Shown: one piece after another, positions 1 through 42,848 of the stretch
How the letters are laid out: the number at the start of each line of letters is the position of its first letter
How positions within the stretch are numbered: position 1 is the stretch's first letter
Assembly: GCA_045600705.1 (NCBI GenBank)
Contig: JAZRYL010000042.1
Coordinates: 15,833-79,832 of the forward strand
DNA: 64,000 nucleotides
Source: Clostridia bacterium
GTDB taxonomy: Bacteria; Bacillota; Clostridia; Christensenellales; QALW01
Direction: 5' to 3'
Made by a program: the position numbers and the translations under genes
Notes under the pieces: generated by a model
The model's input: only the letters and a program-made list of their open reading frames with translations
Told to the model about the DNA's origin: nothing
Database searches by the model: none

Positions 1-751
1 AAACTTCAGCGAACACGCTGTCCGCAACGGATTTTTCTATTTTTGTGTCAAGAAAATGTTCCACCGCATAAACCGCCTGCATAACAAGCATATAAAGTCC
101 GCCCTCTGCCTTAATGTTGCGGCTTTGCGCATCAAGTACAAGATTTGTGCGCAGGGGATTATATACCGCATCCACCACTCCCGAAAGGTGCGGGAACGCA
201 TCAAGCTTTATGGGTTGTCCGTCACATTCGGGGTACATTCCCACGGGAGTTGTATTGATGATAACGTCCGCATCCGAATGTACCGTTGCCGCTTCTTCAT
301 AGGTTACAACAGCATCCGTTTTTCTTCGGCTGACCGTAAGCACCTGCGATGCGCCCATATCCTCCGCAACTACACGAACGGTTTTACTTGTTCCACCCGA
401 CCCAAGCACAAGCACTTTTTTATCATTCAAATCAATGCCTGTTTTTTCGATAAGTGCTTTTATTCCGTAATAATCCGTGTTGTATCCGTAAAGCTTGCCG
501 TGTTTATTGACTACGGTGTTTACGCTTCCTATGCGTTTTGCAACGTCGCTTACAAAATCCATATACGGAATGACCGTTTGCTTATACGGTATGGTAACGT
601 TAATTGCTTCAAACGGCTTTTCCGTAAAAAACTGAGCGATTTCGTCCTCGGAAAGTTCTATCAGTTCGTATTCGTAATCCGCAAGCAATGCGTGAATTTC
701 TTTTGAAAAACTGTGCGTCAGTTTTTTTCCGATACATCCGTATTTCTTCAT
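1..751 (-). CDS. aroE: shikimate dehydrogenase, 3' end cut by window edge
   Basis: Absent from the ORF track because there is no stop in the window. Hand translation from the ATG at 751 gives MKKYGCIGKKLTHSFSKEIH..NVTIPYK..GYNTD..VLGSGGTSK. RBS AAAGGAAAG lies upstream. It follows aroC in the same operon. Confidence 0.85.
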   Translation of the reverse strand, partial: MKKYGCIGKKLTHSFSKEIHALLADYEYELIELSEDEIAQFFTEKPFEAINVTIPYKQTVIPYMDFVSDVAKRIGSVNTVVNKHGKLYGYNTDYYGIKALIEKTGIDLNDKKVLVLGSGGTSKTVRVVAEDMGASQVLTVSRRKTDAVVTYEEAATVHSDADVIINTTPVGMYPECDGQPIKLDAFPHLSGVVDAVYNPLRTNLVLDAQSRNIKAEGGLYMLVMQAVYAVEHFLDTKIEKSVADSVFAEV

Positions 752-783
752 AAAAACTTTCCTTTCTTCTGAAAATGCGTGAT

Positions 784-1872
784 TTATTTAAGCCAATCGG
801 TGCCGAAACGAAGTGCAAGAGCATCGCACAAAACGATTGCCGTTGCCGCATCCTGCACCGCACGTGCTCTGTGAACTATTGCCGGGTCGTGTCTGCCCTC
901 GCTTTCAAGCACCGTGTCCGTCATTGTGCGGAAATCAACCGTGTTTTGCGGTCTGAATAACGTGGGTGTCGGCTTTATCGCCGTGCGGAAAATAATGGGC
1001 ATACCGTTAGTAATTCCGCCGTTGATGCCGCCGTTGTTGTTGGTGTCGGTAACAACTTTTCCGTCCGAAACGTGCATTAAATCGTTTGCCGAGCTTCCAC
1101 GCATATCGGCAATATCAAAGCCAATGCCGAATTCTATTCCCTTTACCGCAGGAACGGAAAACATCATATGGGAAATAAGTCCCTCCACAGTATCGAACCA
1201 TGGCTCGCCCACCCCTGCGGGAACACCCGTAACCGCCGTTTCAAGAACACCGCCTACGCTGTCCTTTTCCTCAGCGGCACGGAGAATTTCGCTTTTCATT
1301 TTTTCTCCGCTTGCTTCGTCAAGCACGGCAAAGGTCTTTTCGTTAAGTATTTTTATGTCATTTTTCAAATTATCAAATTCTCTGTCGGAAATTCCTGCGC
1401 ATTTTTTAATGTGAGTGCCGATACAGATGCCTTTTTGCTCCAAAGCGAATTTACAAACAGCACCTGCGGCAACAAGCGCCGCCGTAATTCTGCCGCTGAA
1501 ATGTCCGCCCCCGCGGGAATCCTGAAATCCGTGATATTTACATTCCGCCGTAAAATCTGCGTGGGACGGCCGAGCAACCGTCTGCATTTGCGCATAATCG
1601 GCGCTTTTCACGTTTTCGTTTGGAATAAGCACCGTAAGGGGCGTGCCTGTGGTCAATCCGTTCACTGCGCCGCTGATGATTTTGTATTCGTCCTTTTCCG
1701 CACGGGGCGTGGAAATTTTGCCTACGGGACGGCGGAACGTCAACATACGGGAAATATATTCACGGTCAATTTTTATTCCGGGTGCAAGTCCGTCTACCGT
1801 TGCGCCTATAAATTCGCCGTGGCTTTCGCCGAAAAGCGTTACCGAAATGCTGTTGCCGAACGTATTTTTCAT
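784..1872 (-). CDS. aroC: chorismate synthase
   Basis: 362-aa ORF. N-terminus FGNSISVTLFGESHGEFIGATVDGLAPG, plus ARPSHADF and RHDPAIV blocks typical of AroC. Confidence 0.95.
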   Translation of the reverse strand: MKNTFGNSISVTLFGESHGEFIGATVDGLAPGIKIDREYISRMLTFRRPVGKISTPRAEKDEYKIISGAVNGLTTGTPLTVLIPNENVKSADYAQMQTVARPSHADFTAECKYHGFQDSRGGGHFSGRITAALVAAGAVCKFALEQKGICIGTHIKKCAGISDREFDNLKNDIKILNEKTFAVLDEASGEKMKSEILRAAEEKDSVGGVLETAVTGVPAGVGEPWFDTVEGLISHMMFSVPAVKGIEFGIGFDIADMRGSSANDLMHVSDGKVVTDTNNNGGINGGITNGMPIIFRTAIKPTPTLFRPQNTVDFRTMTDTVLESEGRHDPAIVHRARAVQDAATAIVLCDALALRFGTDWLK

Positions 1873-1876
1873 ACTT

Positions 1877-2890
1877 TTAGCCCTCCAAACAGATTTTTGC
1901 CGTTTTTACGACTTCCGAACACTTCATTTTTTGCAAATTCGCCTTGCCGATTTCGTCTGCCGTAACAACCGTTACCGTATCTCCGTCGGATTTTTTATCG
2001 TGAAACATGGCTTCCTCGATTTTGTTCCAGTCGTAATTTATTTCACGGTACAAGCCGTATTTTTCAAGCACCTTTTTTACCCGTGAACGCACGTTTTCAC
2101 CGCACATGGGAAGCATACCGAGTGCAACACATTCGCCGTGATAAAGCTCGTGCATACCCTGACTGCTTTCAATTCCGTGCCCCACCGTATGCCCGAAATT
2201 AAGTATTTTGCGAAGTCCCGATTCCTTTTCGTCCTGCTCCACCACGTTTTTCTTAATCATAAGCGAACGGACGATCATTTCGTCAATATCCTTTTCGATA
2301 TTTCCGTTTTCGAACAATTCAAACAGTTCTGCGTCCGACGTAACCGACATTTTTATTGCTTCCGCAATGCCGTTTGATATTTGCCGTGCAGGAAGCGTTT
2401 TCAAAAGTTCGGGGTCTATCAGTACCTTTTTCGGCTGATAGAACGCTCCCACAATATTTTTAACTCCGCAGAAATTTACCGCCGTTTTTCCGCCGATAGA
2501 TGAATCTATTTGGGAAAGAAGCGTTGTAGGCACGTTGTAGAAATCTATTCCGCGCATATAGGCAGATGCGGCAAAGCCCGAAAGATCGCCTACCACACCG
2601 CCGCCAACGGCAACAACGCAATCTTTTCTTGAAAAGCCGTGTTCCAGCATTGCCTGAAGCACCTGACCGAACACTTCAATACTTTTCGAATTCTCGCCCT
2701 CGTTTACGGTCAATACGGTTCCGTCCTTGCACTGCGAAAGAAGTGCTTGCGAATATTCCTTCGGCACGCCCTTGTCCGTTACGATAAGAACTTTTCTGTT
2801 AAGCTCAAGATACTTACCTGCGTTTTTCAAAGCGTTACGTTCTATAACGATATCGTAGCCGTTTTTGTCCAAATTCATCCGTAAAATCAT
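1877..2890 (-). CDS. aroB: 3-dehydroquinate synthase
   Basis: 337-aa ORF with GGGVVGDLSGFAASAYMRGIDFYNVPTTLLSQIDSSIGGKTAVN and the HTVGHGIE metal site. Confidence 0.93.
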   Translation of the reverse strand: MILRMNLDKNGYDIVIERNALKNAGKYLELNRKVLIVTDKGVPKEYSQALLSQCKDGTVLTVNEGENSKSIEVFGQVLQAMLEHGFSRKDCVVAVGGGVVGDLSGFAASAYMRGIDFYNVPTTLLSQIDSSIGGKTAVNFCGVKNIVGAFYQPKKVLIDPELLKTLPARQISNGIAEAIKMSVTSDAELFELFENGNIEKDIDEMIVRSLMIKKNVVEQDEKESGLRKILNFGHTVGHGIESSQGMHELYHGECVALGMLPMCGENVRSRVKKVLEKYGLYREINYDWNKIEEAMFHDKKSDGDTVTVVTADEIGKANLQKMKCSEVVKTAKICLEG

Positions 2891-2900
2891 TTTTATCTCC

Positions 2901-3989
2901 TCATATTTCGGTATGGGGAGCGAATGTTCCCGCCACCTTAAGCTGACTGCATACCTGAGTCAGTTCGGCAATCATCTGTTCGCCCTTATCCGTATTGACA
3001 GTGCCGTCGATTTCAACATAAAAATAATACTGCCACGAATGTTTTTTCGACGGTCTGCTGCGAAGTGCGCTCATATTGTATCCGAATTTTCCGATAATGC
3101 TGATCGCCTTGGCAAGTGTGCCTACTTCGTGTTTAACGGTGAACATCAGCACCGAGCTTGTAAGTGACGGCGACTTTGCTTTGACTTTGGAAAGCACCGC
3201 AAACCGAGTGGTGTTTTTACTGCTTTTATTTATGTTTGCCGCTAAAATCTTTAATCCGTAAAGTTCTGCGGTTTCGGCACTTGCAACAGCACCAAGCGAT
3301 TTATCCTTTGCCTCCGCCACGAATTTTGCCGCCACCGCCGTATTGCTTGCTTCCTCTGCTTCAAGTCCGTGTTTTTCAATGTAATCGTGGCATTGGGCAA
3401 GCGCCTGCGGATGACTTAATACTTTCTTTATATCCTCCGCCGAGGAATCGGGAATTCCGAGCAGATTTTGATGAATTTCAAGCTCGTATATGCCGTTTAT
3501 AAAAAGGTTGCCCGAAAAAATCAAGTCAACAGTCTGTCCCACCTCACCTGCATAACTGTTCTCAATGGGAAGCACCGCCACGTCGTTTTCGCCGTTTGAC
3601 ACCGAATCGTACGCCGACTTGAAATCACGGTAAGAAATCGTACTGCTTTCGGGGAAAATCCTGCCTGCGGCAATATGGGCGAACGCCCCCTCAACACCGC
3701 AATATGCCACCTTCAGACCGCTTTGCATACGGTACTGATACGCACGGGAAACGGACATCGTATTTTTAAGAAAGTCGATGTAATATTCTTTCAGCACGTC
3801 GTCCGCTATCATTGCGGAATTCTTTTTGATAACCTCATCCTCTCTTTTTTGGTCGAGAATAGGAAGTCCGAATTCCTTTTTGTATTCAAGAACCGATTCC
3901 GCCGCCCTCATTCGCTTTACGAACAGTTCCGCCATTTGGGAGTCCACTTCATTTATGATTTTTCTTGCTTCCTCAAGCTTGCTTGCCAT
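2901..3989 (-). CDS. pheA: bifunctional chorismate mutase / prephenate dehydratase (P-protein) with C-terminal ACT domain
   Basis: 362 aa. N-terminal AroQ-type mutase helix (IDSQMAELFVKRMRAA..GLPILDQKREDEV), a dehydratase core (VAYCGVEGAFAHIAA..TTRFAVL) and an ACT region ending in the SALRSRPS motif. Confidence 0.9.
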   Translation of the reverse strand: MASKLEEARKIINEVDSQMAELFVKRMRAAESVLEYKKEFGLPILDQKREDEVIKKNSAMIADDVLKEYYIDFLKNTMSVSRAYQYRMQSGLKVAYCGVEGAFAHIAAGRIFPESSTISYRDFKSAYDSVSNGENDVAVLPIENSYAGEVGQTVDLIFSGNLFINGIYELEIHQNLLGIPDSSAEDIKKVLSHPQALAQCHDYIEKHGLEAEEASNTAVAAKFVAEAKDKSLGAVASAETAELYGLKILAANINKSSKNTTRFAVLSKVKAKSPSLTSSVLMFTVKHEVGTLAKAISIIGKFGYNMSALRSRPSKKHSWQYYFYVEIDGTVNTDKGEQMIAELTQVCSQLKVAGTFAPHTEI

Positions 3990-4005
3990 AATAAAAACGT
4001 TCCTT

Positions 4006-5040
4006 TCAAAGTTTTTCCGCTATATCGAAAATAAGACGTTCCGTTTTTTCCCAGCCCAAGCACGGGTCGGTAATAGACTTGCCGAAGGTGTGTTCGCCCA
4101 CCTTTTGTGCGCCGTCCTCAATGTAGCTTTCTATCATAAGTCCCTTTATAAGATGTCTTATATCGGGATTTTGGTTGCAGCTGTAAACGATATCCTTTGC
4201 TATACGAATTTGTTCAAGGTACTGTTTGCCCGAATTGTTATGGTTCGTGTCCACGATAACGGACGGATTTACCAAATTCGATTTTTCGTAAAGGTCACGC
4301 ACTCTCAAAAGGTCCTCATAATGATAGTTGGAAGTGCTTCTTCCCGCATAATCCACATATCCGCGAAGAATTGCGTGTGCATAGGGATTTCCTGCACTTG
4401 TGACCTCCCAGCCACGGTAAATGAACGTATGACTTCCCTGCGCCGCTACTATGGAATTCATCATAACGCTTAAATCGCCGCCGGTAGGATTTTTCATACC
4501 GACAGGTGCTTCTATTCCGCTTGCGGTAAGACGGTGCTGCTGATTTTCCACCGAACGTGCGCCGATGGCAACGTAGGAAAGCAAATCCGAAAGATAACGG
4601 TAATTCTCCGGATAAAGCATTTCGTCCGCACAGGTAAAACCGTAATCCTTAAGTGCCGCAAGGTGAAGCTCACGAATTGCAACTATTCCCTTATACATAT
4701 CCGGCTTTGCTTCCGGGTCCGGCTGATGAAGCATTCCCTTGTAGCCCTGACCGGTCGTTCTCGGTTTGTTGGTGTAAATTCTCGGAATAATGATTATCTT
4801 GTCAGCCACCTGTTCGGAAATTCTCTCTAAGCGTGAAATATATTCAAGTACGGGTTCACGGTGGTCCGCCGAGCAGGGACCGATTATAAGAATGAATTTG
4901 TCCGATTTTCCCTCGAACACCGCTTTAATTTCCGCATCACGTTTCTCCTTGACCTTGACCATTTCATCGGTAAGGGGGAATTCTGCCTTAACTTCTTTGG
5001 GAATAGGAAGCTTTCTGTGGAACGTCATTTGCATTTTCAA
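4006..5040 (-). CDS. 3-deoxy-7-phosphoheptulonate (DAHP) synthase, class I (AroF/G/H family)
   Basis: 344 aa with ILIIGPCSADHREPVLEYISRL, KPRTTGQGYKGM and DTNHNNSGKQ blocks. First gene of the aro operon. Confidence 0.9.
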   Translation of the reverse strand: MKMQMTFHRKLPIPKEVKAEFPLTDEMVKVKEKRDAEIKAVFEGKSDKFILIIGPCSADHREPVLEYISRLERISEQVADKIIIIPRIYTNKPRTTGQGYKGMLHQPDPEAKPDMYKGIVAIRELHLAALKDYGFTCADEMLYPENYRYLSDLLSYVAIGARSVENQQHRLTASGIEAPVGMKNPTGGDLSVMMNSIVAAQGSHTFIYRGWEVTSAGNPYAHAILRGYVDYAGRSTSNYHYEDLLRVRDLYEKSNLVNPSVIVDTNHNNSGKQYLEQIRIAKDIVYSCNQNPDIRHLIKGLMIESYIEDGAQKVGEHTFGKSITDPCLGWEKTERLIFDIAEKL

Positions 5041-5075
5041 TTACCTCGTTTCTTATATTCTATCACATTTTCTGA

Positions 5076-5128
5076 AATAAAAAAAGTCCGACTTTCTGTC
5101 TGCCTTAATGCACGACGAATTCGGACTG
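5076..5128 (-). terminator. attenuator terminator 2 of the aro leader
   Basis: Minus-strand RNA AGTCCGA-ATTC-GTCGTGC-ATTAAG-GCAGAC-AGAAAG-TCGGACT followed by UUUUUUUAUUU. It sits between leader ORF 2 and the DAHP synthase RBS. Confidence 0.7.
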
Positions 5129-5153
5129 TCCGTTTTATATGCTTCAATGAATT

Positions 5154-5222
5154 TTATTTGAATTCACATAAATACGAACGGTCCGTTCTAAAGTAATAAT
5201 AATATGATGCGTAAATTTTCAT
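5154..5222 (-). CDS. aromatic leader peptide 2 (22 codons: MKIYASYYYYFRTDRSYLCEFK)
   Basis: ATG at 5222 is preceded by AAGGAGA. Codons 7-11 run Tyr-Tyr-Tyr-Tyr-Phe. Followed by attenuator terminator 2. Confidence 0.6.
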   Translation of the reverse strand: MKIYASYYYYFRTDRSYLCEFK

Positions 5223-5242
5223 AACTCTATCTCCTTTTTTTG

Positions 5243-5295
5243 AAAAATAAAAAATCCGCATTGCTCAGTATGCTTAAAAGCACGGCAAATGCGGA
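5243..5295 (-). terminator. attenuator terminator 1 of the aro leader
   Basis: Minus-strand stem TCCGCATT..AATGCGGA (8 bp plus inner pairs) followed by UUUUUUAUUUUU. Lies directly upstream of the leader ORF 2 RBS. Confidence 0.7.
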
Positions 5296-5321
5296 CTGTC
5301 CATTCAAATTGACTTAAGAAA

Positions 5322-5390
5322 TTATTCTTCATTAGTCACAAAAGACGGACAGCCCTTTTTATAATAATAAAAGTAAAACTTATTATTCAC
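5322..5390 (-). CDS. aromatic leader peptide 1 (22 codons: VNNKFYFYYYKKGCPSFVTNEE)
   Basis: GTG at 5390 lies 10 nt after AAAGGAGGT. Codons 5-10 run Phe-Tyr-Phe-Tyr-Tyr-Tyr. GGGCTGTCC inside the ORF is complementary (with one G-U pair) to GGACAGTCC, which abuts terminator 1. Confidence 0.6.
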   Translation of the reverse strand: MNNKFYFYYYKKGCPSFVTNEE

Positions 5391-5424
5391 GGTAAAAGCT
5401 ACCTCCTTTGTGATTTATGTTAGT

Positions 5425-5453
5425 AGTATAGCACACAAAAATCTGTTCGTCAA
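5425..5453 (-). promoter_or_regulatory. sigma-A type promoter of the aro operon leader
   Basis: Minus strand TTGACG, 17 nt, TATACT with an upstream TG (TGCTATACT). Confidence 0.55.
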
Positions 5454-5497
5454 ATATTTTTTTGCAGGTCAAAAAAAAGAATTCACGTTGTTTTTTA

Positions 5498-5526
5498 TTG
5501 CAAAATACCCTAATATGTTATATAAT
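5498..5526 (+). promoter_or_regulatory. sigma-A type promoter of the miaB-mutS-mutL-miaA operon
   Basis: TTGCAA, 17 nt, TATAAT, about 35 nt upstream of the miaB start. Confidence 0.55.
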
Positions 5527-5561
5527 TATATATAATATACATATGTTAAGGAGCGAAAATT

Positions 5562-6959
5562 TTGCAGAAGGTTAAAAGTTTTAAGATTACCTGTGAAAGT
5601 GAATATATTGGTAAAGTAAAAGAATTTTTCGGCACGAAAAAGCACACGTATTTTGTGGAAACCTACGGTTGCCAAATGAACGTGCGTGACTCGCAGACTC
5701 TTTCGGGAATGTTTGAGCAGATGGGCTACGAAAAGTCCGAAACAAGAGAGGACGCCGATGCGGTAATATTCAATACCTGCTGTGTGCGTGAAAACGCCGA
5801 AGACCGCCTGCTTGGCAATTTGGGCAAGCTGAAGCAAATAAAACAAAAGCGTCCCGATATGCTTGTTATGATTTGCGGTTGTATGATGCAGGAGCCGGGC
5901 ACGGTAGAAAAAATCAAGAAAAGATTTAAGTTTGTTGACGTAATATTCGGCACGCACAATTCCTTTGAAATGCCGAAGCTTATGTATTCGGCGCTTTCGA
6001 TGAAGCAAAGCACTTATGCGATTTGGGACAAGGAAGGCGAAATCATCGAAGAAATGCCCGTAAAGCGTGAGCGTGATGTTACCGCTTGGGTAAACATTAT
6101 GTACGGCTGCAACAATTTCTGTTCATACTGCATCGTTCCGTACGTTCGGGGCAGAGAACGTTCAAGAAAGAGCGACGACATTATAAAAGAAGTTACCGAG
6201 CTTGCCGAATCGGGCGTAAAGGAAGTTTGTCTTTTAGGTCAGAACGTAAATTCCTACGGAAAAGACTCTGACGAAATATCTTTCCCCCGGCTTCTTCGCA
6301 AGCTTAACGAAATCGAAAAATTAGAGCGCATCCGCTTTATGACAAGTCACCCGAAGGACCTTTCCGACGACCTTATTTCCGCAATGGCGGAATGTAACAA
6401 GGTCTGCAAATATCTGCACCTGCCCGTACAGTCCGGTTCAAACAGAATTCTTTCACTTATGAACCGCCGCTACACCCGTGAAGATTATCTTCTTTTAGTT
6501 AAAAAGCTTCGTGAAAAAATGCCCGAAATCGCTATTTCCACGGACATAATCGTGGGCTTCCCCACGGAAACGGAAGAAGATTTCCTTGACACCTTAGACC
6601 TTTACGAAAAGGTTTGCTATAATTCGGCATTCACGTTCGTGTATTCACCGAGAGTCGGCACTCCTGCGGCAAAAATGGACGGTCAGATTCCCGAAGAAGT
6701 CACCAAGGACCGTATGGCTCGCCTTATTAAAATGAGCGAGGAATGTTCCCTTAAAACCAATGAGCCGTATATAAACAATACCTATTCCGTGCTCGTTGAA
6801 GGCGTTTCCCGCAAAAACGAAACCGAACTTTCCGGCAAGACCGACACCGGCAGATCCGTTTCGTTCAAGGGCTCGTCCGAGCTTATCGGCAAAATCGTAA
6901 AAGTTAAAATAACCGGTTCAAAATTAAATCTTCTCTTTGGAGAATTGGAGGAAAAATAA
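5562..6959 (+). CDS. miaB: tRNA-2-methylthio-N6-dimethylallyladenosine synthase (radical SAM methylthiotransferase)
   Basis: 465 aa. Has the YFVETYGCQMNVRDS UPF0004 domain, the radical-SAM CNNFCSYCIVP motif and a C-terminal TRAM domain. TTG start after AAGGAG. Confidence 0.92.
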   Translation: MQKVKSFKITCESEYIGKVKEFFGTKKHTYFVETYGCQMNVRDSQTLSGMFEQMGYEKSETREDADAVIFNTCCVRENAEDRLLGNLGKLKQIKQKRPDMLVMICGCMMQEPGTVEKIKKRFKFVDVIFGTHNSFEMPKLMYSALSMKQSTYAIWDKEGEIIEEMPVKRERDVTAWVNIMYGCNNFCSYCIVPYVRGRERSRKSDDIIKEVTELAESGVKEVCLLGQNVNSYGKDSDEISFPRLLRKLNEIEKLERIRFMTSHPKDLSDDLISAMAECNKVCKYLHLPVQSGSNRILSLMNRRYTREDYLLLVKKLREKMPEIAISTDIIVGFPTETEEDFLDTLDLYEKVCYNSAFTFVYSPRVGTPAAKMDGQIPEEVTKDRMARLIKMSEECSLKTNEPYINNTYSVLVEGVSRKNETELSGKTDTGRSVSFKGSSELIGKIVKVKITGSKLNLLFGELEEK

Positions 6960-9538
6960 TGCCCCTTTCACCTATGATGCAACGGTACGTTGACTTAAAA
7001 GAACATTATAAGGACTGTCTTGTATTCTACCGATTAGGCGATTTTTACGAAATGTTCTTTGACGATGCAAAAATCGCTTCAAAGGAGCTTCAGCTCGCCC
7101 TCACCGGCAGAGATTGCGGTTTGACGGAAAAAGCACCTATGTGCGGTGTTCCGCACCACAGTGTGAACACTTACATAAACCGCCTGCTTGCAAAAAACTA
7201 CAAGGTCGCAATTTGCGAACAGCTTTCCGACCCCAAGGCATCAAAAGGTCTTGTGGAACGTGGCATCGTCCGTGTTGTTACTCCCGGAACGATTATTGAG
7301 GACGATATGCTTGACAGCAAGTCCAACAACTTTCTTGCCGCAGTATATCTTCTTAAGGACAAGTGCGGAATTTCCTGGGCGGACGTTTCAACCGGCGAAT
7401 TCAACACCTGCTGTGTAGATGCGGATATCACTCTTGATGCCGTTTCTTCACGCTTGCTTGAGATAAATCCCACCGAAATACTCGTAAACAGAGAATTTCT
7501 TGACCGTTCGGACTCGATTCCTCAATACATAAGAAAACAGTTAAAGCCGTTTGCCTGCTCGACGCTTTTCGACGGTGATGCGGATGCGGGATTTTTCGAC
7601 CGCTTTAAGGATTGGAGCAAGAACGGCAAAAAATACGTTCATTCAACCAAGTCCTCGGCGGCACTGTGGGCATATCTTATCGAAACGCAGAAAAACGTAC
7701 TTGCCCACATGAACAGAATTACGTTTATTGAAGATACCGATCATCTTATTCTTGATGCGGCGGCGATAAAAAACCTTGAACTGTTCAATTCTATGGGTGA
7801 TCACGGCACACGAGGAACCCTTTTGTGGCTTTTGGATAAAACCGAAACACCTATGGGCGGCAGAAAAATTAAGACGTTTCTTGAACGTCCTTTGCGTAAC
7901 AAGGACGCCATAAACAAGCGACTTGACGGCGTTGAAGAACTTAAAAATAACTATGCGCTCCGTGAAGACCTTAAGGAAGCGCTTTCGGAAATTTCCGATA
8001 TAGAGCGAATTTGCACCCGTGTTTCCTACGGCACGGTAAATGCCCGTGAAGCGGTATTTATGCGCAAATCACTTAAAAATCTTCCTAAGGTGAAATCACT
8101 TCTTGAAAATTCTTCTTCGGAAGCGGTAAAGGAAATATTCGATAACATCGACACACTTACGGACATTTATGATTTGCTTGAAGCAAGCATTGCGGACGAC
8201 CCCGCCGACAGTATCACCGAGGGCGGAATAATCAAAAAGGGTTATGACGAAAATCTTGATAAGTACCGTGATGCGGTGGAAAACGGTCAAAGCTGGATTT
8301 TGCGCCTTGAAAATCAGTACCGTGAAGAAACGGGAATAAAACAGCTTAAAATCAAGTATAACAAGGTATTCGGTTATTCAATCGAAGTCACCAACAGTTA
8401 CAAGGATAAGGTTCCTTACACGTTCACACGCAGACAAACTCTTGCCGGTGCGGAACGTTACACCACCGATGAACTGAAAAAAACCGAAGAACTTATTTCG
8501 GGAAGCTCGGAAAAAGCAATTCGCCTTGAATACCAAATTTTCACAAAAGTGCGTGAAACACTTTTTGATGCGATTTTCCGCATAAGAAAAACATCGGAAG
8601 CCATTTCCGTGCTTGACGTGCTTCTTTCCCTTGCAAACCTTGCGGATGAAAACAACTACGTTCGTCCGAGCATCAATACCGACGGCAAAATTGAGATATT
8701 TTCGGGCAGACATCCTGTCATCGAGGCGATGCAAAAGGACCTTGCCTTTGTGCCCAACGACACATTCCTTGATAACGGGGACAACAGATTTATGGTTATT
8801 ACCGGCCCCAATATGGCAGGTAAGTCCACATATATGCGTCAAACGGCTCTTATCACGCTTATGGCGCACTTGGGAAGTTTCGTTCCTGCACAAAGTGCAA
8901 ACATTTCCGTTTGCGACAGAATTTTCACCCGTGTGGGCGCTTCCGATGACCTTTCGGCAGGTCAGTCAACTTTTATGCTTGAAATGACCGAAGTGGCTAA
9001 CATCATTAAGTGCGCCACCAAGGATTCGCTTATTATCCTTGACGAAATCGGCAGAGGCACTTCCACCTTTGACGGACTTTCTATTGCGTGGGCGGTCACC
9101 GAATACATTTCCGATAAAAAATATATCGGTGCAAAAACCCTGTTCGCCACTCACTATCACGAGCTTTCCGAGCTTGAAGGCACTCTTGAGGGCGTAAAAA
9201 ATTACTGCATTACCGCCAAGGAATACGGCGACGACGTTATTTTCCTGCGCAAAATCGTTCGTGGAAGCGCAGACAAAAGTTTCGGTATCGCCGTTGCCCA
9301 CCTTGCAGGTATTCCCAAACCCGTGCTTAACCGTGCAAAGGATATTCTTTCCGACCTGGAAAAGGCGGACATCACCCGCGGTGCTGAACCGAGTTCAACG
9401 CAAACGACTATGTTCGTTTCCGACAATACCGCAAAAATCATCGACGAATTAAAGGAAATCGACGTAAACACGCTTACGCCCATTCAGGCGATAAACATTC
9501 TTTGTGAATTAAGAGAAAAGGCAAAGAGAGAATTATGA
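6959..9538 (+). CDS. mutS: DNA mismatch repair protein MutS
   Basis: 859 aa with TPMMQRY-like N-terminus (SPMMQRYVDLKEHYKDCLVFYRLGDFYEMF), Walker A GPNMAGKSTYMRQ and DEIGRGTSTFDG. Start overlaps the miaB stop by 1 nt. Confidence 0.97.
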   Translation: MPLSPMMQRYVDLKEHYKDCLVFYRLGDFYEMFFDDAKIASKELQLALTGRDCGLTEKAPMCGVPHHSVNTYINRLLAKNYKVAICEQLSDPKASKGLVERGIVRVVTPGTIIEDDMLDSKSNNFLAAVYLLKDKCGISWADVSTGEFNTCCVDADITLDAVSSRLLEINPTEILVNREFLDRSDSIPQYIRKQLKPFACSTLFDGDADAGFFDRFKDWSKNGKKYVHSTKSSAALWAYLIETQKNVLAHMNRITFIEDTDHLILDAAAIKNLELFNSMGDHGTRGTLLWLLDKTETPMGGRKIKTFLERPLRNKDAINKRLDGVEELKNNYALREDLKEALSEISDIERICTRVSYGTVNAREAVFMRKSLKNLPKVKSLLENSSSEAVKEIFDNIDTLTDIYDLLEASIADDPADSITEGGIIKKGYDENLDKYRDAVENGQSWILRLENQYREETGIKQLKIKYNKVFGYSIEVTNSYKDKVPYTFTRRQTLAGAERYTTDELKKTEELISGSSEKAIRLEYQIFTKVRETLFDAIFRIRKTSEAISVLDVLLSLANLADENNYVRPSINTDGKIEIFSGRHPVIEAMQKDLAFVPNDTFLDNGDNRFMVITGPNMAGKSTYMRQTALITLMAHLGSFVPAQSANISVCDRIFTRVGASDDLSAGQSTFMLEMTEVANIIKCATKDSLIILDEIGRGTSTFDGLSIAWAVTEYISDKKYIGAKTLFATHYHELSELEGTLEGVKNYCITAKEYGDDVIFLRKIVRGSADKSFGIAVAHLAGIPKPVLNRAKDILSDLEKADITRGAEPSSTQTTMFVSDNTAKIIDELKEIDVNTLTPIQAINILCELREKAKREL

Positions 9539-11715
9539 AAATAAAACTTCTTGACCCAAACGTTTCCAACAAAATCGCCGCAGGCGAGGTAGTCGAACGT
9601 CCCTCCTCAATCGTTAAGGAGCTTTGTGAGAACTCCATTGACGCAGGCGCTTCAAGTATTACCGTGGAAATTAAGGGCGGCGGAATAGATTATATCCGCA
9701 TTACCGACAACGGCTGCGGTATGGAACAGGACGACGTAAAAACCGCCTTTCTGCGCCACGCAACAAGCAAAATTTCCGTTGCAGAGGACTTGAATAACAT
9801 TTTAACGCTCGGTTTCCGTGGTGAAGCACTCGCTTCCATTGCTTCCGTTTCGCAAATCGTGCTTCAGACACGCACAAAGAACTCCATTGAGGGCACGGAA
9901 ATCAATCTTTCGGGCGGTACAATTGAAAAATTTACTTCCTGCGGCTGCCCCGAAGGCACGCTTATCCGTGTGGAAAATCTGTTTTTCAACACTCCCGCAA
10001 GAAGAAAATTCTTAAAGCGCCCCTCTCAGGAAGCGTCCTACATCAATGACGTTATCAACCGCCTTGCGCTTTCCCACCCGGAAGTGGCGGTAAAGTTTAT
10101 TTCCGAGGGTAAAACCGTGCTTCGCACTCCCGGTGACGGCTTGCTTTCCTCCTGTATTCGCGGAATTTACGGTGCAGATGTTGCCGCAAATATTATCCCT
10201 CTTGAATTTTCCGACCGTGGAATCACTCTGTCGGGATTTTTGGGCAACCGTGAAATTCAAAAAAGCAACCGTTCGTGGCAAATTCTGTTCATTAACGGCA
10301 GAAGCGTGAAAAACGACTTGGTTTCAGCCGCCGTTTATCAAGGCTATGCAGGACGGCTTAACGTGGGCAAATTCCCGTTTTTCGTCTTAAGTATCTCTCT
10401 TGAGGGCAACCTTGTGGACGTAAATGTGCATCCCACTAAGCAGGAAGTCCGTTTTGCCGACGGCTTGCCAATATTCGACACGGTGCTTACCGCCGTTTCC
10501 CGCACGCTTACAAAAAATCAGGAAATTCCGTCACTTTTCAAGCAGGAACGTGTTCAGCCGGTCGCTGACGTAAAGGTGATAAGCGGTGTTCCCGGCGCAA
10601 AGGAAACAAATGTTTCGCCCTCTCAAACGGCAGAACAGAAACCAACTGCGCAGAACATCCCCGCAGGGCAGAACACTCCCGCTGAACCGCAAAAAGCAAA
10701 AATCGACCCCTACGAACCAATAAGTCCCCAAGAACTCGTTAAATCACTTAACGAGCAGGATAAATATAGATTTGACAGTAAAAAACCTTTTGCCGTAGAA
10801 ACGGGCTTTAAGGGTTATTCGTCGCAGAAGCCAACACCCGTTTATGCCGAAAAAAACAAGGAAGTTCACGCACTTGCGGATTATCTTAAAGACTCCGTTA
10901 AGGGTATGAATGACTCCTCTGATGCCGTTTCGGTAAAAATCTCTCCCGTTCAGCCTGCCGAAAAGGATGATTTCAAAAATTTAATAGAAAAAACCGATTT
11001 CAGGGAGCAAAAAACGCAACAAAATGTTCGGGAGCAAGGCGTTCAAACGGCAGAAAATGTTCAAGAACAAAGCATTCAAAATGCTTCCGCTGTGTCGGAG
11101 CAGACAACGTTTATTTCGGAAGAAAAACTGCGTGAGTTTGAACCCGATTACAAGATTATCGGAATTTTGTTCGACACCTATATCGTTATTGAATTTGAGG
11201 GCAGTGCGTACATAATCGACCAGCACGCCGCCCATGAACGAATTCTTTTTGAGCGTTTGTATGCTTCCTGCGGTGAAAATTCCGCAAGTCAGATACTGAT
11301 GATTCCGAGAATTATCAAGGTTTCGCCCTCTGAGCAGGCGATTTTGGAGGACCTTATCCCCCACTTGACCGAACTCGGCTACGAAATCGACGACGTGGGA
11401 TTAGGTTCGTTTGCCGTCAAGGCGACTCCCTCTGCGCTTGAGGACACCGACCCCGAAAAATTCATTACATCGCTGCTGACCGAGGGTAATTCAATAAAAA
11501 TTCTGCGCACTAACGAACTGAAACGCAACAAACTAATGCAGCTTGCCTGCAAAAGTGCCGTTAAGGCAGGCGACAAGCTAACCGAAAACGACATAAAAGT
11601 GCTGCTTGACTTAATCGTTAAGGAAAGCGTACCTCTTTCCTGCCCCCACGGCAGACCGATTTTAATTAAACTTTCCAAGCACGAACTTGAGGTTCGGTTC
11701 AAGAGGATACAATGA
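9535..11715 (+). CDS. mutL: DNA mismatch repair endonuclease MutL
   Basis: 726 aa with the GHKL N-terminus (IAAGEVVERPSSIVKELCENSIDAG, DNGCGM), a long low-complexity linker, and a C-terminal DQHAAHERILFE endonuclease motif and CPHGRP. ATGA overlap with mutS. Confidence 0.95.
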   Translation: MKIKLLDPNVSNKIAAGEVVERPSSIVKELCENSIDAGASSITVEIKGGGIDYIRITDNGCGMEQDDVKTAFLRHATSKISVAEDLNNILTLGFRGEALASIASVSQIVLQTRTKNSIEGTEINLSGGTIEKFTSCGCPEGTLIRVENLFFNTPARRKFLKRPSQEASYINDVINRLALSHPEVAVKFISEGKTVLRTPGDGLLSSCIRGIYGADVAANIIPLEFSDRGITLSGFLGNREIQKSNRSWQILFINGRSVKNDLVSAAVYQGYAGRLNVGKFPFFVLSISLEGNLVDVNVHPTKQEVRFADGLPIFDTVLTAVSRTLTKNQEIPSLFKQERVQPVADVKVISGVPGAKETNVSPSQTAEQKPTAQNIPAGQNTPAEPQKAKIDPYEPISPQELVKSLNEQDKYRFDSKKPFAVETGFKGYSSQKPTPVYAEKNKEVHALADYLKDSVKGMNDSSDAVSVKISPVQPAEKDDFKNLIEKTDFREQKTQQNVREQGVQTAENVQEQSIQNASAVSEQTTFISEEKLREFEPDYKIIGILFDTYIVIEFEGSAYIIDQHAAHERILFERLYASCGENSASQILMIPRIIKVSPSEQAILEDLIPHLTELGYEIDDVGLGSFAVKATPSALEDTDPEKFITSLLTEGNSIKILRTNELKRNKLMQLACKSAVKAGDKLTENDIKVLLDLIVKESVPLSCPHGRPILIKLSKHELEVRFKRIQ

Positions 11716-12575
11716 AAATTCCGATTATAGCAGGACCTACCGCTTCGGGAAAAACGGCGTTGGGCGTTGCTCTTGCAAAAAAATACAACGGCGAAATCAT
11801 TTCCTGCGACTCAATGCAGATTTTTAAGGATATTCCCATTTGCTCGGCTCAGCCTACCGAGGAAGAAAAAGAGGGAATTCTCCATCATTTAATGGGTTTT
11901 CTCGATTTTGACGCACGTTTTACCGTGGAAGATTACCGCACCCTTGCGCTTGAAAAAATCCGTGAGGTGCAAAGTCGGGGCAAACTTCCCATAATCGTGG
12001 GCGGCACGGGAATGTATTTGCATTATCTTATTTATCAGCCCGATTTCGGCGCAGACTCCGACGAAAAAATCAAATGTGAACTTGAAAAACTTTCAAACGA
12101 ACAACTTTACGCAAAACTTACCGAACTTGATTCTGCACCGATTATCACGCCCAATGACCGAAAACGGCTTGTTCGGGCATTAGAGGTGTATGCGCTGACG
12201 GGAAAATTACCGCCGAAAACGCCCGAAAAAATAAAAAATACCGAATTTGACTTCGAACTTTATTGCATTTCACCCGACCGTGAAATTCTTTATGAAAAAA
12301 TCAACCGCCGTGTGGATATTATGCTTGAAAACGGTATGGTTGATGAGGTCAAACGTATGCAGGAACTTGGCGCAAATGAGTCGCACCAAAGTTTTAAGGC
12401 AATCGGCTGCCGACAGTTGATAGACCATTTTAACGGAAAGTGTTCCTTTGAGGAAGCCGTGGAAACAATTAAGCAGGAAAGCCGCCGTTATGCCAAACGT
12501 CAACTCACGTGGATGCGCAAGGAAGACGCAACTTGGCTCGAAAACGGCTCGGACATTGATAACTTTTTCGGATAA
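11712..12575 (+). CDS. miaA: tRNA dimethylallyltransferase
   Basis: 287 aa with P-loop GPTASGKTALG, SCDSMQIFKD and RRYAKRQLTWMR. ATGA overlap with mutL. Confidence 0.93.
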   Translation: MKIPIIAGPTASGKTALGVALAKKYNGEIISCDSMQIFKDIPICSAQPTEEEKEGILHHLMGFLDFDARFTVEDYRTLALEKIREVQSRGKLPIIVGGTGMYLHYLIYQPDFGADSDEKIKCELEKLSNEQLYAKLTELDSAPIITPNDRKRLVRALEVYALTGKLPPKTPEKIKNTEFDFELYCISPDREILYEKINRRVDIMLENGMVDEVKRMQELGANESHQSFKAIGCRQLIDHFNGKCSFEEAVETIKQESRRYAKRQLTWMRKEDATWLENGSDIDNFFG

Positions 12576-36462: not shown

Positions 36463-36618
36463 GAAAAATAAAAGGGCACAGATTTACATTGGCGTGACTT
36501 TAAGAATGTTACGCTAACGTAAAACTGTGCCCAGACGGTCGGCATATAAGGTTCCCGCTCCCATGCAGTTGCCTGCTTTGCGAATTTTTTTCGCATTTCC
36601 GTCAGTAACGGGGACACA
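36463..36618 (-). promoter_or_regulatory. ZTP (pfl-motif) riboswitch with overlapping intrinsic terminator
   Basis: Minus-strand 5' subdomain CCCCGUUACUGACGG..UGGGAGCGGGAAC and 3' subdomain CCGACCGUCUGGGCA. The pseudoknot pair GACGG/CCGUC covaries relative to the usual GGCG/CGCC. The terminator GGGCACAG..CUGUGCCC-UUUUAUUUUU reuses the GGGCA of the aptamer. Confidence 0.72.
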
Positions 36619-36621
36619 TAA

Positions 36622-39601: not shown

Positions 39602-39623
39602 TCAGGTACAAAATTTAAGAACA

Positions 39624-39700
39624 TTGCCAAACCCGTGGAAACATGGGGACGGAAAGCTCAGGAGTCTAAAGCATAATATGCAATGACAGTCCGGTTGCAA
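39624..39700 (+). promoter_or_regulatory. cyclic-di-GMP-I (GEMM-I) riboswitch aptamer 1
   Basis: UUGCCAAAC-CCCGUG-GAAA-CAUGGG-GACGGAAAGC-UCAGGAGUCUAAAGCAUAAUAUGCAAUGACAGUCCGG-UUGCAA. It has the GNRA-capped first hairpin, a GACGNAAAGC core, a CUAAA receptor-like bulge and closing helix UUGC/GCAA, as in the Vc2-type consensus. Confidence 0.75.
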
Positions 39701-39755
39701 AATAAAGATTTTTTGCACGGGCTGCTTTTTTATTGCCCGTGGAGAGGAGACCATT

Positions 39756-42698: not shown

Positions 42699-42729
42699 TA
42701 AAAAAGCCGTTTTTCAAAAAAAGTAAAAA

Positions 42730-42801
42730 GGCAAAACACGTGAAAGCGTGTGACGCAAAGTTGTGAATCTAAAACCGAAAGGTCATGATAGTCAAACTGC
42801 A
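42730..42801 (+). promoter_or_regulatory. cyclic-di-GMP-I (GEMM-I)-like riboswitch aptamer 2
   Basis: GGCAAAAC-ACGU-GAAA-GCGUGU-GACGCAAAG-UUGUGAAUCUAAAACCGAAAGGUCAUGAUAGUCAAAC-UGCA. The architecture matches aptamer 1, with compensatory changes in both hairpins. The closing helix is weak (GCA/UGC). Confidence 0.6.
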
Positions 42802-42848
42802 CTAATAAAGGGTTACTATACTTTATTTGTGCAGTTTTTTCTATTTTT
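42794..42848 (+). terminator. intrinsic terminator / expression platform of riboswitch 2
   Basis: AAACTGCAC (42794-42802, shared with the aptamer 3' strand) pairs with GTGCAGTTT (42829-42837), followed by TTTCTATTTTT. The RBS AAAAGGAG of the lipoprotein gene follows. Confidence 0.7.

Follow-up and report, generated by a model that had tools for sequence, protein, structure and literature searches.

Ribosome-mediated attenuation at runs of regulatory codons is classic in Proteobacteria (pheL, trpL and hisL), and the aromatic amino acid genes of Firmicutes are usually controlled by a T-box or by TRAP. Riboswitches and T-boxes also occur in tandem, as two full sensor-terminator units in series, from which a steeper or tighter response is expected. 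The leader-peptide attenuators of Escherichia coli pheL-pheA and pheST and of Corynebacterium glutamicum trpL and aroR have been summarised together (PMC11802643); as that summary presents the work of Neshat et al. (2014), the aroR leader encodes a Phe-Tyr-Phe peptide and acts through ribosome stalling on an aroF operon led by a 3-deoxy-D-arabino-heptulosonate 7-phosphate (DAHP) synthase gene. Leader peptides were long thought to be absent from Firmicutes (PMC1262725); His leaders have been predicted in the Bacillus cereus group, Peptostreptococcaceae and Erysipelotrichales (PMC2965389, PMC9413887), and a Leu-rich ilv attenuator is described as shown in Staphylococcus aureus (PMC5794164). Here, we analysed a 64,000-nt stretch of a Clostridia bacterium assembly (GCA_045600705.1, contig JAZRYL010000042.1, positions 15,833 to 79,832; hereafter the window), in which two short Tyr/Phe-rich open reading frames (ORFs) lie one behind the other upstream of an aromatic amino acid operon. 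These ORFs very likely belong to two serial ribosome-mediated leader-peptide attenuators that would make aroF-pheA-aroB-aroC expression depend on how far tRNA-Phe and tRNA-Tyr are charged. An earlier note, made from the letters alone, had proposed serial ribosome-sensing attenuators, and comparison with relatives favours that reading through codon conservation, conserved helices and tandem units that recur in at least five other loci.

The element very probably falls into the classical class of leader-peptide attenuators, as a new sequence family of a known mechanism, because four class features that can be read from sequence were found (a leader ORF with its ribosome binding site, a cluster of cognate codons kept as codons, an intrinsic terminator and an antiterminator exclusive with it), while every curated RNA family failed to match. 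Like E. coli pheL-pheA (and pheM of pheST), it would combine a short leader ORF, a run of regulatory codons and alternative antiterminator and terminator structures, with the ribosome reading tRNA charging; as in pheL-pheA, termination would precede a gene for chorismate mutase-prephenate dehydratase. In contrast to pheL, to which no similarity in sequence or structure was found (no match to the Rfam Phe_leader family at E<=10), the run here mixes Tyr and Phe codons, the first regulated gene is the DAHP synthase gene, and two units stand in tandem. Furthermore, the strand that competes with the antiterminator precedes the start codon and holds the Shine-Dalgarno (SD) sequence, which places the regulatory codons in the loop of the helix formed by that strand and not in strand 1. 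The closest functional analogue is aroR, likened to our element by its functional description; as far as that description goes, aroR differs in its host phylum (Actinobacteria), in having a three-codon motif (5-8 codons here) and a single unit, and in responding to Phe but not to Tyr. The His and ilv leaders of Firmicutes have the phylum and the class of mechanism in common with this locus, classical attenuation having sporadically replaced T-boxes, but they concern other amino acids and operons, and none has been described as a tandem pair. Tandem riboswitches and T-boxes sense a ligand or a tRNA directly, whereas both sensors here are predicted to be translated leader ORFs with different default states. 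In the literature searched, which is not exhaustive, neither an aromatic leader of Clostridia nor tandem leader-peptide attenuators turned up. Some architectural peculiarities thus set the element apart, namely the SD-containing anti-antiterminator, the regulatory codons in its loop, and two units whose predicted default states differ.

On the minus strand of the window, from 5453 to 5035, a promoter, unit a, unit b and then the DAHP synthase gene follow each other (coordinates in Table 1). The earlier note had reported a TTGACG-17-TATACT promoter, two tandem leader ORFs of 22 codons each with an SD sequence and a Tyr/Phe run, a hairpin with a U-run after each ORF, and an aromatic operon downstream. 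All of these were found in their places, and Pfam identified the operon genes as DAHP synthase, pheA, aroB and aroC. Leader ORF 1 has the SD sequence GGAGG at 5406-5402. Among 2882 small ORFs (8-45 aa, both strands of the window), only leader ORFs 1 and 2 combine an SD sequence with at least five F/Y/W codons in seven, so the observation goes beyond chance. At the start of leader ORF 1, relatives (for example, L158 and L116) read ATG-ATG, and the window reads ACC-GTG (GTG at 5390-5388); this GTG stands 11 nt from the SD sequence, an initiation context weaker than in the relatives. When aligned, units a and b are identical in 78% of columns, indicating an old, diverged tandem duplication. The 391-nt leader forms a much more stable fold than its shuffles do (z-score -5.6).

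Homologous units were collected from genomes and metagenomes. A scan with the DAHP synthase as query, restricted to one genome per species, yielded 80 loci, all from Clostridia and mostly from gut or rumen metagenome-assembled genomes (MAGs) labelled Acutalibacteraceae, Oscillospiraceae, Faecousia or 'Eubacteriales'. Of the 17 closest loci (DAHP synthase >=79% identical), 14 carry, directly upstream of aroF, an ORF that has both an SD sequence and an F/Y run, and an nhmmer profile of the unit added a fifteenth, L008. The same profile had no match in the 63 more distant loci L018-L080 (DAHP synthase <=77% identical), showing that the family is narrow. A pattern scan of metagenomes returned 95 stretches, of which about two thirds were chance matches in soil or sediment contigs and were removed via the profile search; scan and profile together contributed about 30 further units. 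The final alignment (A3) comprises 42 distinct units from MAGs and metagenomes of gut and rumen Clostridia.

The earlier note had suggested looking in relatives for conservation of the codon runs rather than of the peptide, and the outcome was positive: homologous units are present in 15 of the 17 closest loci, about 30 more come from metagenomes, and the last five run codons are 95-100% F/Y. An ORF with 5-8 interleaved F/Y codons occurs in all 42 units, and 41 of them passed an automatic test for SD sequence, start codon and run, the remaining one (L167) having a weaker SD sequence. Counted back from the end of the run, the last five codons are F or Y in 100, 100, 100, 98 and 95% of units, with both residues found at each position. 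Within the run, UAU and UAC alternate, and the only changes are F/Y swaps, synonymous substitutions and indels that keep the frame. In 205 run codons, the first position is T in 203, the second is A (121) or T (82), and the third is T (151) or C (54); C is restricted to the third position in the last five codons. The distance from the start codon to region 1, the conserved segment just past the run, takes only the values 35, 38, 41, 44 or 47 nt, which differ by multiples of three, meaning that indels in between preserve the frame. The earlier note had seen no Trp codons in the two leader ORFs, and across units Trp is nearly absent: F and Y make up 35% of the leader residues and W only 0.1%.

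This period of three shows that the run is not a plain U/A-rich spacer, which bears directly on whether the leader could instead attenuate by binding a ligand or a protein (as a Phe/Tyr riboswitch, a TRAP- or PyrR-like site, or a T-box relative), its ORFs being incidental to such a spacer. Under that explanation, it would make sense that conservation peaks in the terminator region and in GGACAGUCCG, that the upper terminator hairpin (UUGUGC...GCA) is conserved beyond the needs of a plain terminator, and that a T-box or TRAP is the usual solution for aromatic genes in Firmicutes. The strict 3-nt periodicity, with the run always in frame with an SD-preceded start across in-frame indels, speaks against it, as does the coverage of all conserved blocks by three alternative helices, which leaves no conserved unpaired core of the aptamer kind. 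In addition, the 431-nt leader had no Rfam match at E<=10, and neither a T-box core nor (G/U)AG repeats were seen in it. We therefore regard a binding element as very improbable.

Known systems were also considered by direct search. Rfam searches, run on positions 1-12000 (E<=1), on the whole window (gathering threshold) and on the 431-nt leader (E<=10), placed no leader family or other match on the leader; the known leader families (Phe_leader, the Leu/Phe leader, and the Trp, His, Thr and Leu leaders) were rejected for want of a covariance-model match. A T-box riboswitch was rejected because there was no match in the window (gathering threshold), the leader (E<=10) or the loci of 20 relatives, and because its core motif is absent; the earlier note's statement that no T-box core is present thus held up in both the motif scan and the Rfam searches. 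A TRAP attenuator, which comprises 9-11 (G/U)AG triplets 2-3 nt apart, was rejected as well, as positions 5031-5460 hold no run of five or more such triplets.

Piecewise folding of the units returned the same three structures, which we call helix 0:1, helix 1:2 and the terminator. These predicted, mutually exclusive structures explain the conserved blocks. Helix 0:1, the putative anti-antiterminator, pairs the SD region (consensus CACAAAGGAGGCAGC) with GCUGCC..UCUUUUGUG just 3' of the run. It was found in all upstream (type a) units, in whose folds it occludes the SD sequence completely, and was absent from the folded type-b units (win_u2 and L010b). On alignment A3, it is 77% paired, compared with 37-49% in slid controls; 10 of its 17 pairs are doubly changed, and its covariation score was reached by none of 500 shuffles. 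For example, CACAAA:UUUGUG is compensated as CAUGAA:UUUCGUG in L015, UCGUAUA:UAUGCGA in L012 and AAAGAAGG:CUUUCUUU in L006. The duplex energy averages -19.5 kcal/mol in type a, as against -10.3 with shuffled region 0 and -2.5 to -9.2 in type b. When each region was paired with its own and with foreign partners, the own partner was at least as stable as the median foreign one in 24 of 34 units, a modest signal given sequences that are mostly too similar to each other.

Helix 1:2, the putative antiterminator, folds as a long hairpin (-21 to -28 kcal/mol) whose base pairs GGGCUG.CCGU with ACGG.CAGUCC; this base is 96% paired (27-40% when slid). The earlier note had pointed to related segments that might offer alternative pairings and had left the antiterminator unassigned. 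In unit a, these segments are GGGCUGUCC (region 1) and GGACAGUCC (region 2), which are complementary and form the antiterminator base, and in unit b, ACGGACCGUUCG and ACGGACAGUCCG pair with each other; the antiterminator can now be assigned to the pairing of the two segments, with an extra helix that involves the leader SD sequence. All 41 units tested have a hairpin at the tip of the antiterminator, its stem taking 30 different sequences, and in 36 of the 41 the stop codon lies within it. This hairpin was judged sequence by sequence, because MAFFT columns cannot align its variable stem; on alignment A2, RNAalifold retrieved no more than 14 pairs. For the terminator, pairing reaches 82.5% (33-51% when slid), five pairs are doubly changed, and a U-run comes after the hairpin. 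Terminator folds of -15 to -27 kcal/mol with U-runs were obtained in the 16 units folded, and the 42-unit alignment shows U-runs throughout. Region 2 ends in GUCC, four bases that also form the bottom of the terminator stem, beside the U-run; therefore, the antiterminator takes away exactly the pairs that termination needs.

The geometry of the run relative to these helices is constant. In 41 of 41 units, exactly 5 nt of variable sequence separate the last F/Y codon from region 1. The distance from the A-site codon to the mRNA-entry helicase of the ribosome is about 5 nt, and the spacer may thus correspond to the distance between the A-site codon and the point at which mRNA can pair again at the ribosome entry. 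After the run, type-a peptides continue with a conserved K-G-C-P-S-F-V; since these codons are region 1 and the type-b peptide differs, this conservation is that of the RNA. In type-b units, the post-run peptide differs where part of the pairing is not needed.

The same observations bear on the notion that the ORFs are functional small hydrophobic proteins, the hairpins being ordinary terminators or remnants without a regulatory link to the aro operon. The peptides are indeed conserved and hydrophobic or aromatic. Nevertheless, the C-terminal half of the peptide is constrained by the RNA and differs between types a and b, and the stop codon is held in a hairpin loop. The units also lie between the promoter and aroF, with no other operon promoter in most loci, and aromatic biosynthesis genes are linked to them in every locus with readable downstream DNA. 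We give this notion next to no credence.

Constrained folding was used to compare the states of the leader. Free, full-length type-a units adopted the terminator state in 34 of 34 cases, 0:1 plus terminator being favoured by a mean of 7.2 kcal/mol, and free type-b units adopted the antiterminator state in six of seven. When a stall at the last F/Y codon was mimicked by removing the RNA 5' of the ribosome, the antiterminator was the minimum free energy structure in 31 of 34 type-a units (mean -2.4 kcal/mol) and six of seven type-b units. With the ribosome past region 1, the terminator formed in type a and in six of seven type-b units, both by construction. In silico, this stall geometry agrees with the expected logic, and the 5-nt spacer is invariant; the energy gaps are small, and the steric block of 0:1 is assumed.

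On this basis, we propose the following mechanism, in which leader translation, the 0:1 block, kinetic control and the physiological signal are what we infer. In unit a, a ribosome would have to load before region 1 is synthesised. With no ribosome, regions 0 and 1 would pair, and region 2 would be freed to complete the terminator, stopping transcription at about 5249-5254. Under a shortage of Phe or Tyr, the ribosome would stall in the run, that is, in the loop between regions 0 and 1, leaving region 1 exposed and 0:1 unable to close. Region 1 would then pair with the newly made region 2, nucleated by the tip hairpin that bears the stop codon, and 1:2 would sequester the GUCC base of the terminator stem, allowing RNA polymerase to read through. 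A ribosome that runs on would cover region 1, which would then be recaptured by region 0 behind it, giving the terminator. Because F and Y alternate, a shortage of either amino acid alone should stall the ribosome within the first run codons. Unit b would make a second measurement without the 0:1 helix and thus without a default-OFF lock: its default fold would be the antiterminator, and termination there would require a ribosome to translate region 1 of unit b without stopping. Two serial checks would sharpen the response. The inverse logic, in which a stalled ribosome masks region 1 and causes termination, was rejected on two grounds: with this spacer, region 1 stays outside a ribosome stalled at any codon but the last, and starvation should derepress a biosynthetic operon.

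A leader-peptide attenuator with a different switch is also conceivable. In one version, 0:1 merely limits leader translation to one round by occluding the SD sequence, and the decision is set solely by the ribosome covering region 1, as in the three-strand logic of unit b; in another, the nascent peptide or a free amino acid arrests the ribosome in the manner of TnaC. The type-b units, which work without 0:1 in silico, the full occlusion of the type-a SD sequence by 0:1, and the fairly conserved residues before the run (N-K) could all be understood in this way. Yet 0:1 and 1:2 use identical region 1 bases, so that 0:1 necessarily competes with the antiterminator. As to an arrest peptide, run length and F/Y order vary freely, unlike in known arrest peptides, and the conserved residues after the run (GCPSFV) are explained by RNA pairing and lost in type b. 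A different switch is hence improbable in our estimate.

Several points weigh against the serial attenuators proposed here. The preference of the stalled state for the antiterminator is small (the above mean of -2.4 kcal/mol), and the overlap between antiterminator and terminator is short, only 4-5 nt; the switch must therefore be largely kinetic. For unit b of the window, the energies are near neutral (-0.8 kcal/mol free and +1.3 with a stall at the last codon). The block of 0:1 pairing across a stalled ribosome would be a steric effect, and when the stall falls on the final codon of the run, the ribosome may mask the beginning of region 1. Helix 1:2 is near-invariant, with single wobble-compatible changes only, no double compensatory changes and a covariation not above that of shuffles, so that its support comes from conserved complementarity and from the covarying tip hairpin. 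Finally, the family is taxonomically narrow, and much of the conservation within it may reflect shared ancestry.

A more elaborate version of the serial attenuators, which we hold only tentatively, sees in the two units not a simple duplicate but a two-stage gate of different architectures, with the element also recruited to another pathway. Unit a would be four-strand, SD-occluding and OFF unless a ribosome stalls, and unit b three-strand and ON unless translated through. Expression of the operon would then require each of two ribosomes in succession to signal hungry Phe/Tyr codons. With the regulatory codons in the anti-antiterminator loop, the stalled ribosome would exert its effect by keeping strands 0 and 1 apart and not by masking a strand.

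Table 1 Predicted features of the leader and operon in the window and of one metagenome locus.
Feature	Position	Strand	Details
Sigma-70-type promoter	5425-5453	-	-35 TTGACG 5453-5448; 17-nt spacer with TG; -10 TATACT 5430-5425
Unit a	5414-5243	-	Four strands: region 0, region 1, region 2, terminator 3' arm with U-run
Region 0, unit a	5398-5414	-	ATCACAAAGGAGGTAGC; holds the leader SD sequence (CACAAAGGAGGUAGC); 5' strand of the 0:1 anti-antiterminator helix
Leader ORF 1 (unit a)	5322-5390	-	GTG start, 22 codons and stop; V/MNNKFYFYYYKKGCPSFVTNEE; homologous ORFs in 42 units
Regulatory codon run, unit a	5361-5378	-	UUU UAC UUU UAU UAU UAU (F Y F Y Y Y)
Region 1, unit a	5336-5355	-	GGGCTGTCCGTCTTTTGTGA; GGGCUGUCCGUCUUUUGUG in the four-strand model; starts 5 nt past the last Tyr codon; pairs with region 0 or region 2
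Tip hairpin, antiterminator a	5310-5338	-	UAA stop codon 5324-5322 in the loop
Region 2, unit a	5293-5302	-	TGGACAGTCC; UGGACAGUCC in the four-strand model; 3' strand of the antiterminator base; last 4 nt GTCC = base of the terminator 5' arm
Intrinsic terminator a	5243-5296	-	Hairpin GTCCGCATTTGC...GCAATGCGGA(T) 5296-5255; U-run TTTTTTATTTTT (UUUUUUAUUUUU) 5254-5243
Unit b	5237-5079	-	SD sequence, ORF 2, regions 1 and 2, terminator b
SD sequence of unit b	5230-5237	-	AAAGGAGA; GGAG 5234-5231; adjoins the terminator a U-run; without a 0:1 partner
Leader ORF 2 (unit b)	5154-5222	-	ATG start, 22 codons and stop; MKIYASYYYYFRTDRSYLCEFK
Regulatory codons, unit b	5190-5213	-	UAC..(GCA UCA)..UAU UAU UAU UAC UUU
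Region 1, unit b	5175-5185	-	CGGACCGTTCG; G5184 is 5 nt past the UUU codon
Middle and tip helices, antiterminator b	5134-5172	-	UAA stop codon 5156-5154 in the loop
Region 2, unit b	5122-5132	-	CGGACAGTCCG; pairs with region 1 of unit b; overlaps the terminator b 5' arm
Intrinsic terminator b	5079-5127	-	Hairpin AGTCCGA...TCGGACT 5127-5085 with inner stem; U-run TTTTTTT 5085-5079
aroF/aroG-type DAHP synthase	4006-5034	-	Pfam DAHP_synth_1, 1.2e-46; ribosome binding site GAGG 5047-5044, ATG 5034; first regulated gene
Operon remainder pheA-aroB-aroC	784-3989	-	Pfam; identical gene order after the units in relatives
pheA (chorismate mutase, prephenate dehydratase, ACT)	2901-3989	-	Pfam
aroB (3-dehydroquinate synthase)	1877-2890	-	Pfam
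aroC (chorismate synthase)	784-1872	-	Pfam
L097 (JAEIGA010042257.1), AMP-binding ORF (acyl-CoA ligase)	3517-5160	-	Pfam; downstream of the L097 unit
L097, IorA-like thiamine pyrophosphate/ferredoxin oxidoreductase ORF	1660-3435	-	Pfam; downstream of the L097 unit
L097, POR-gamma-like IorB ORF	1088-1660	-	Pfam; downstream of the L097 unit

At the locus itself, the promoter is the top-scoring promoter-like site in 4000-6000, with 10 of 12 matches and a TG extension, and an equivalent TTGAC-17-TATAAT lies upstream of type-a units in relatives. About 40 nt separate the unit b U-run from the ribosome binding site and start codon of the DAHP synthase gene, the start having been chosen by alignment with relatives. 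By their Pfam assignments, the products of aroF-pheA-aroB-aroC lead to chorismate and Phe. Divergent miaB-like and mutS genes (Pfam) lie upstream of the aro operon.

Tandem a and b pairs were also found in L010, L081, L092, L116 and L130, and truncated ones in L101, L111 and L112. The type-b units resemble each other (...KGCPQIEFKR). Thus, the duplication is ancestral to a subclade and not peculiar to the window genome. In all loci with readable downstream DNA except L097 and L008, aroF follows the unit directly, usually as aroF-pheA-aroB-aroC. In L008, from an Oscillospiraceae MAG, the F/Y unit (1790-1987) precedes a tyrA gene (2024-2881; prephenate dehydrogenase, Pfam PDH_N/PDH_C) inserted before aroF-pheA, and the predicted attenuator there covers the Tyr branch too.

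In L097, a type-a unit at 5518-5343 of the minus strand (MIFNNKFYYYYYYFEKGCPSFVKNEI) precedes three genes other than aroF (Table 1). Judging from the Pfam domains, this gene set fits the activation of phenylacetate and its reductive carboxylation to phenylpyruvate, an alternative route to Phe that has been noted for rumen microbes (PMC7356843). Because a gap of about 180 nt with a possible extra -10 box precedes the first ORF, co-transcription of the unit and these genes is uncertain. If the two-stage gate holds true, the L097 association, with genes read as an aryl-acetate-CoA ligase and an indolepyruvate-type ferredoxin oxidoreductase, may define a Tyr/Phe-starvation regulon of rumen and gut Clostridia that includes the reductive-carboxylation route to Phe.

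More distant loci show other arrangements. An unrelated-looking leader is present 136 nt before aroF in L071 (2700-2945 of CAMHNT010000026.1, an uncultured Clostridia MAG; DAHP synthase 68% identical). It consists of TTGACA-17-TATACT, an SD sequence, the ORF MSKLMNVTYSYFYFNSWGYFTPVQFVVRQTSIG (Y, F and one W), and a hairpin TACCGATG...CATCGG with a U-run; the nhmmer unit profile did not detect it, and it may be an independently evolved aromatic leader attenuator. In L018-L020, L013 and L016, aroF is not the first gene of the operon: a coding region ending in ...MMR.STERR..FDK... runs up to aroF (about 450 nt upstream), and this end looks, by eye, like the C-terminus of the protein encoded by L008 tyrA. 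The 3-kb flank of these five loci contains neither an F/Y unit nor a T-box or another Rfam element. An Rfam search of the 20 relatives' loci without the unit returned tRNAs only and no T-box; in many of them, aroF sits in a longer operon, with tyrA upstream, so that the true leader lies outside the 3-kb flank.

Elsewhere in the window, Rfam searches returned two cyclic di-GMP-I riboswitch aptamers 3 kb apart (39616-39702 and 42720-42804, plus strand; 73 and 70 bits) and a ZMP/ZTP (pfl motif) riboswitch aptamer (36522-36619, minus strand; 47.4 bits against a gathering score of 39).

Overall, the understanding of the mechanism class is unchanged by this element, which brings no new principle. 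Classical attenuation is textbook knowledge in Proteobacteria and sporadic in Firmicutes (His and branched-chain amino acids), and it would here be extended to Tyr plus Phe and to uncultured gut and rumen Clostridia. The locus offers a compact natural case of serial attenuators and of an anti-antiterminator made from the leader's own ribosome binding site, which may be of use in engineered amino-acid-responsive switches. For the annotation of these MAGs, the gain is a function for a region that would otherwise be left as 'intergenic' DNA of 400 nt or be annotated as a pair of hypothetical small ORFs. For the biology of the family, these results suggest how gut and rumen Clostridia may sense their supply of aromatic amino acids without T-boxes.

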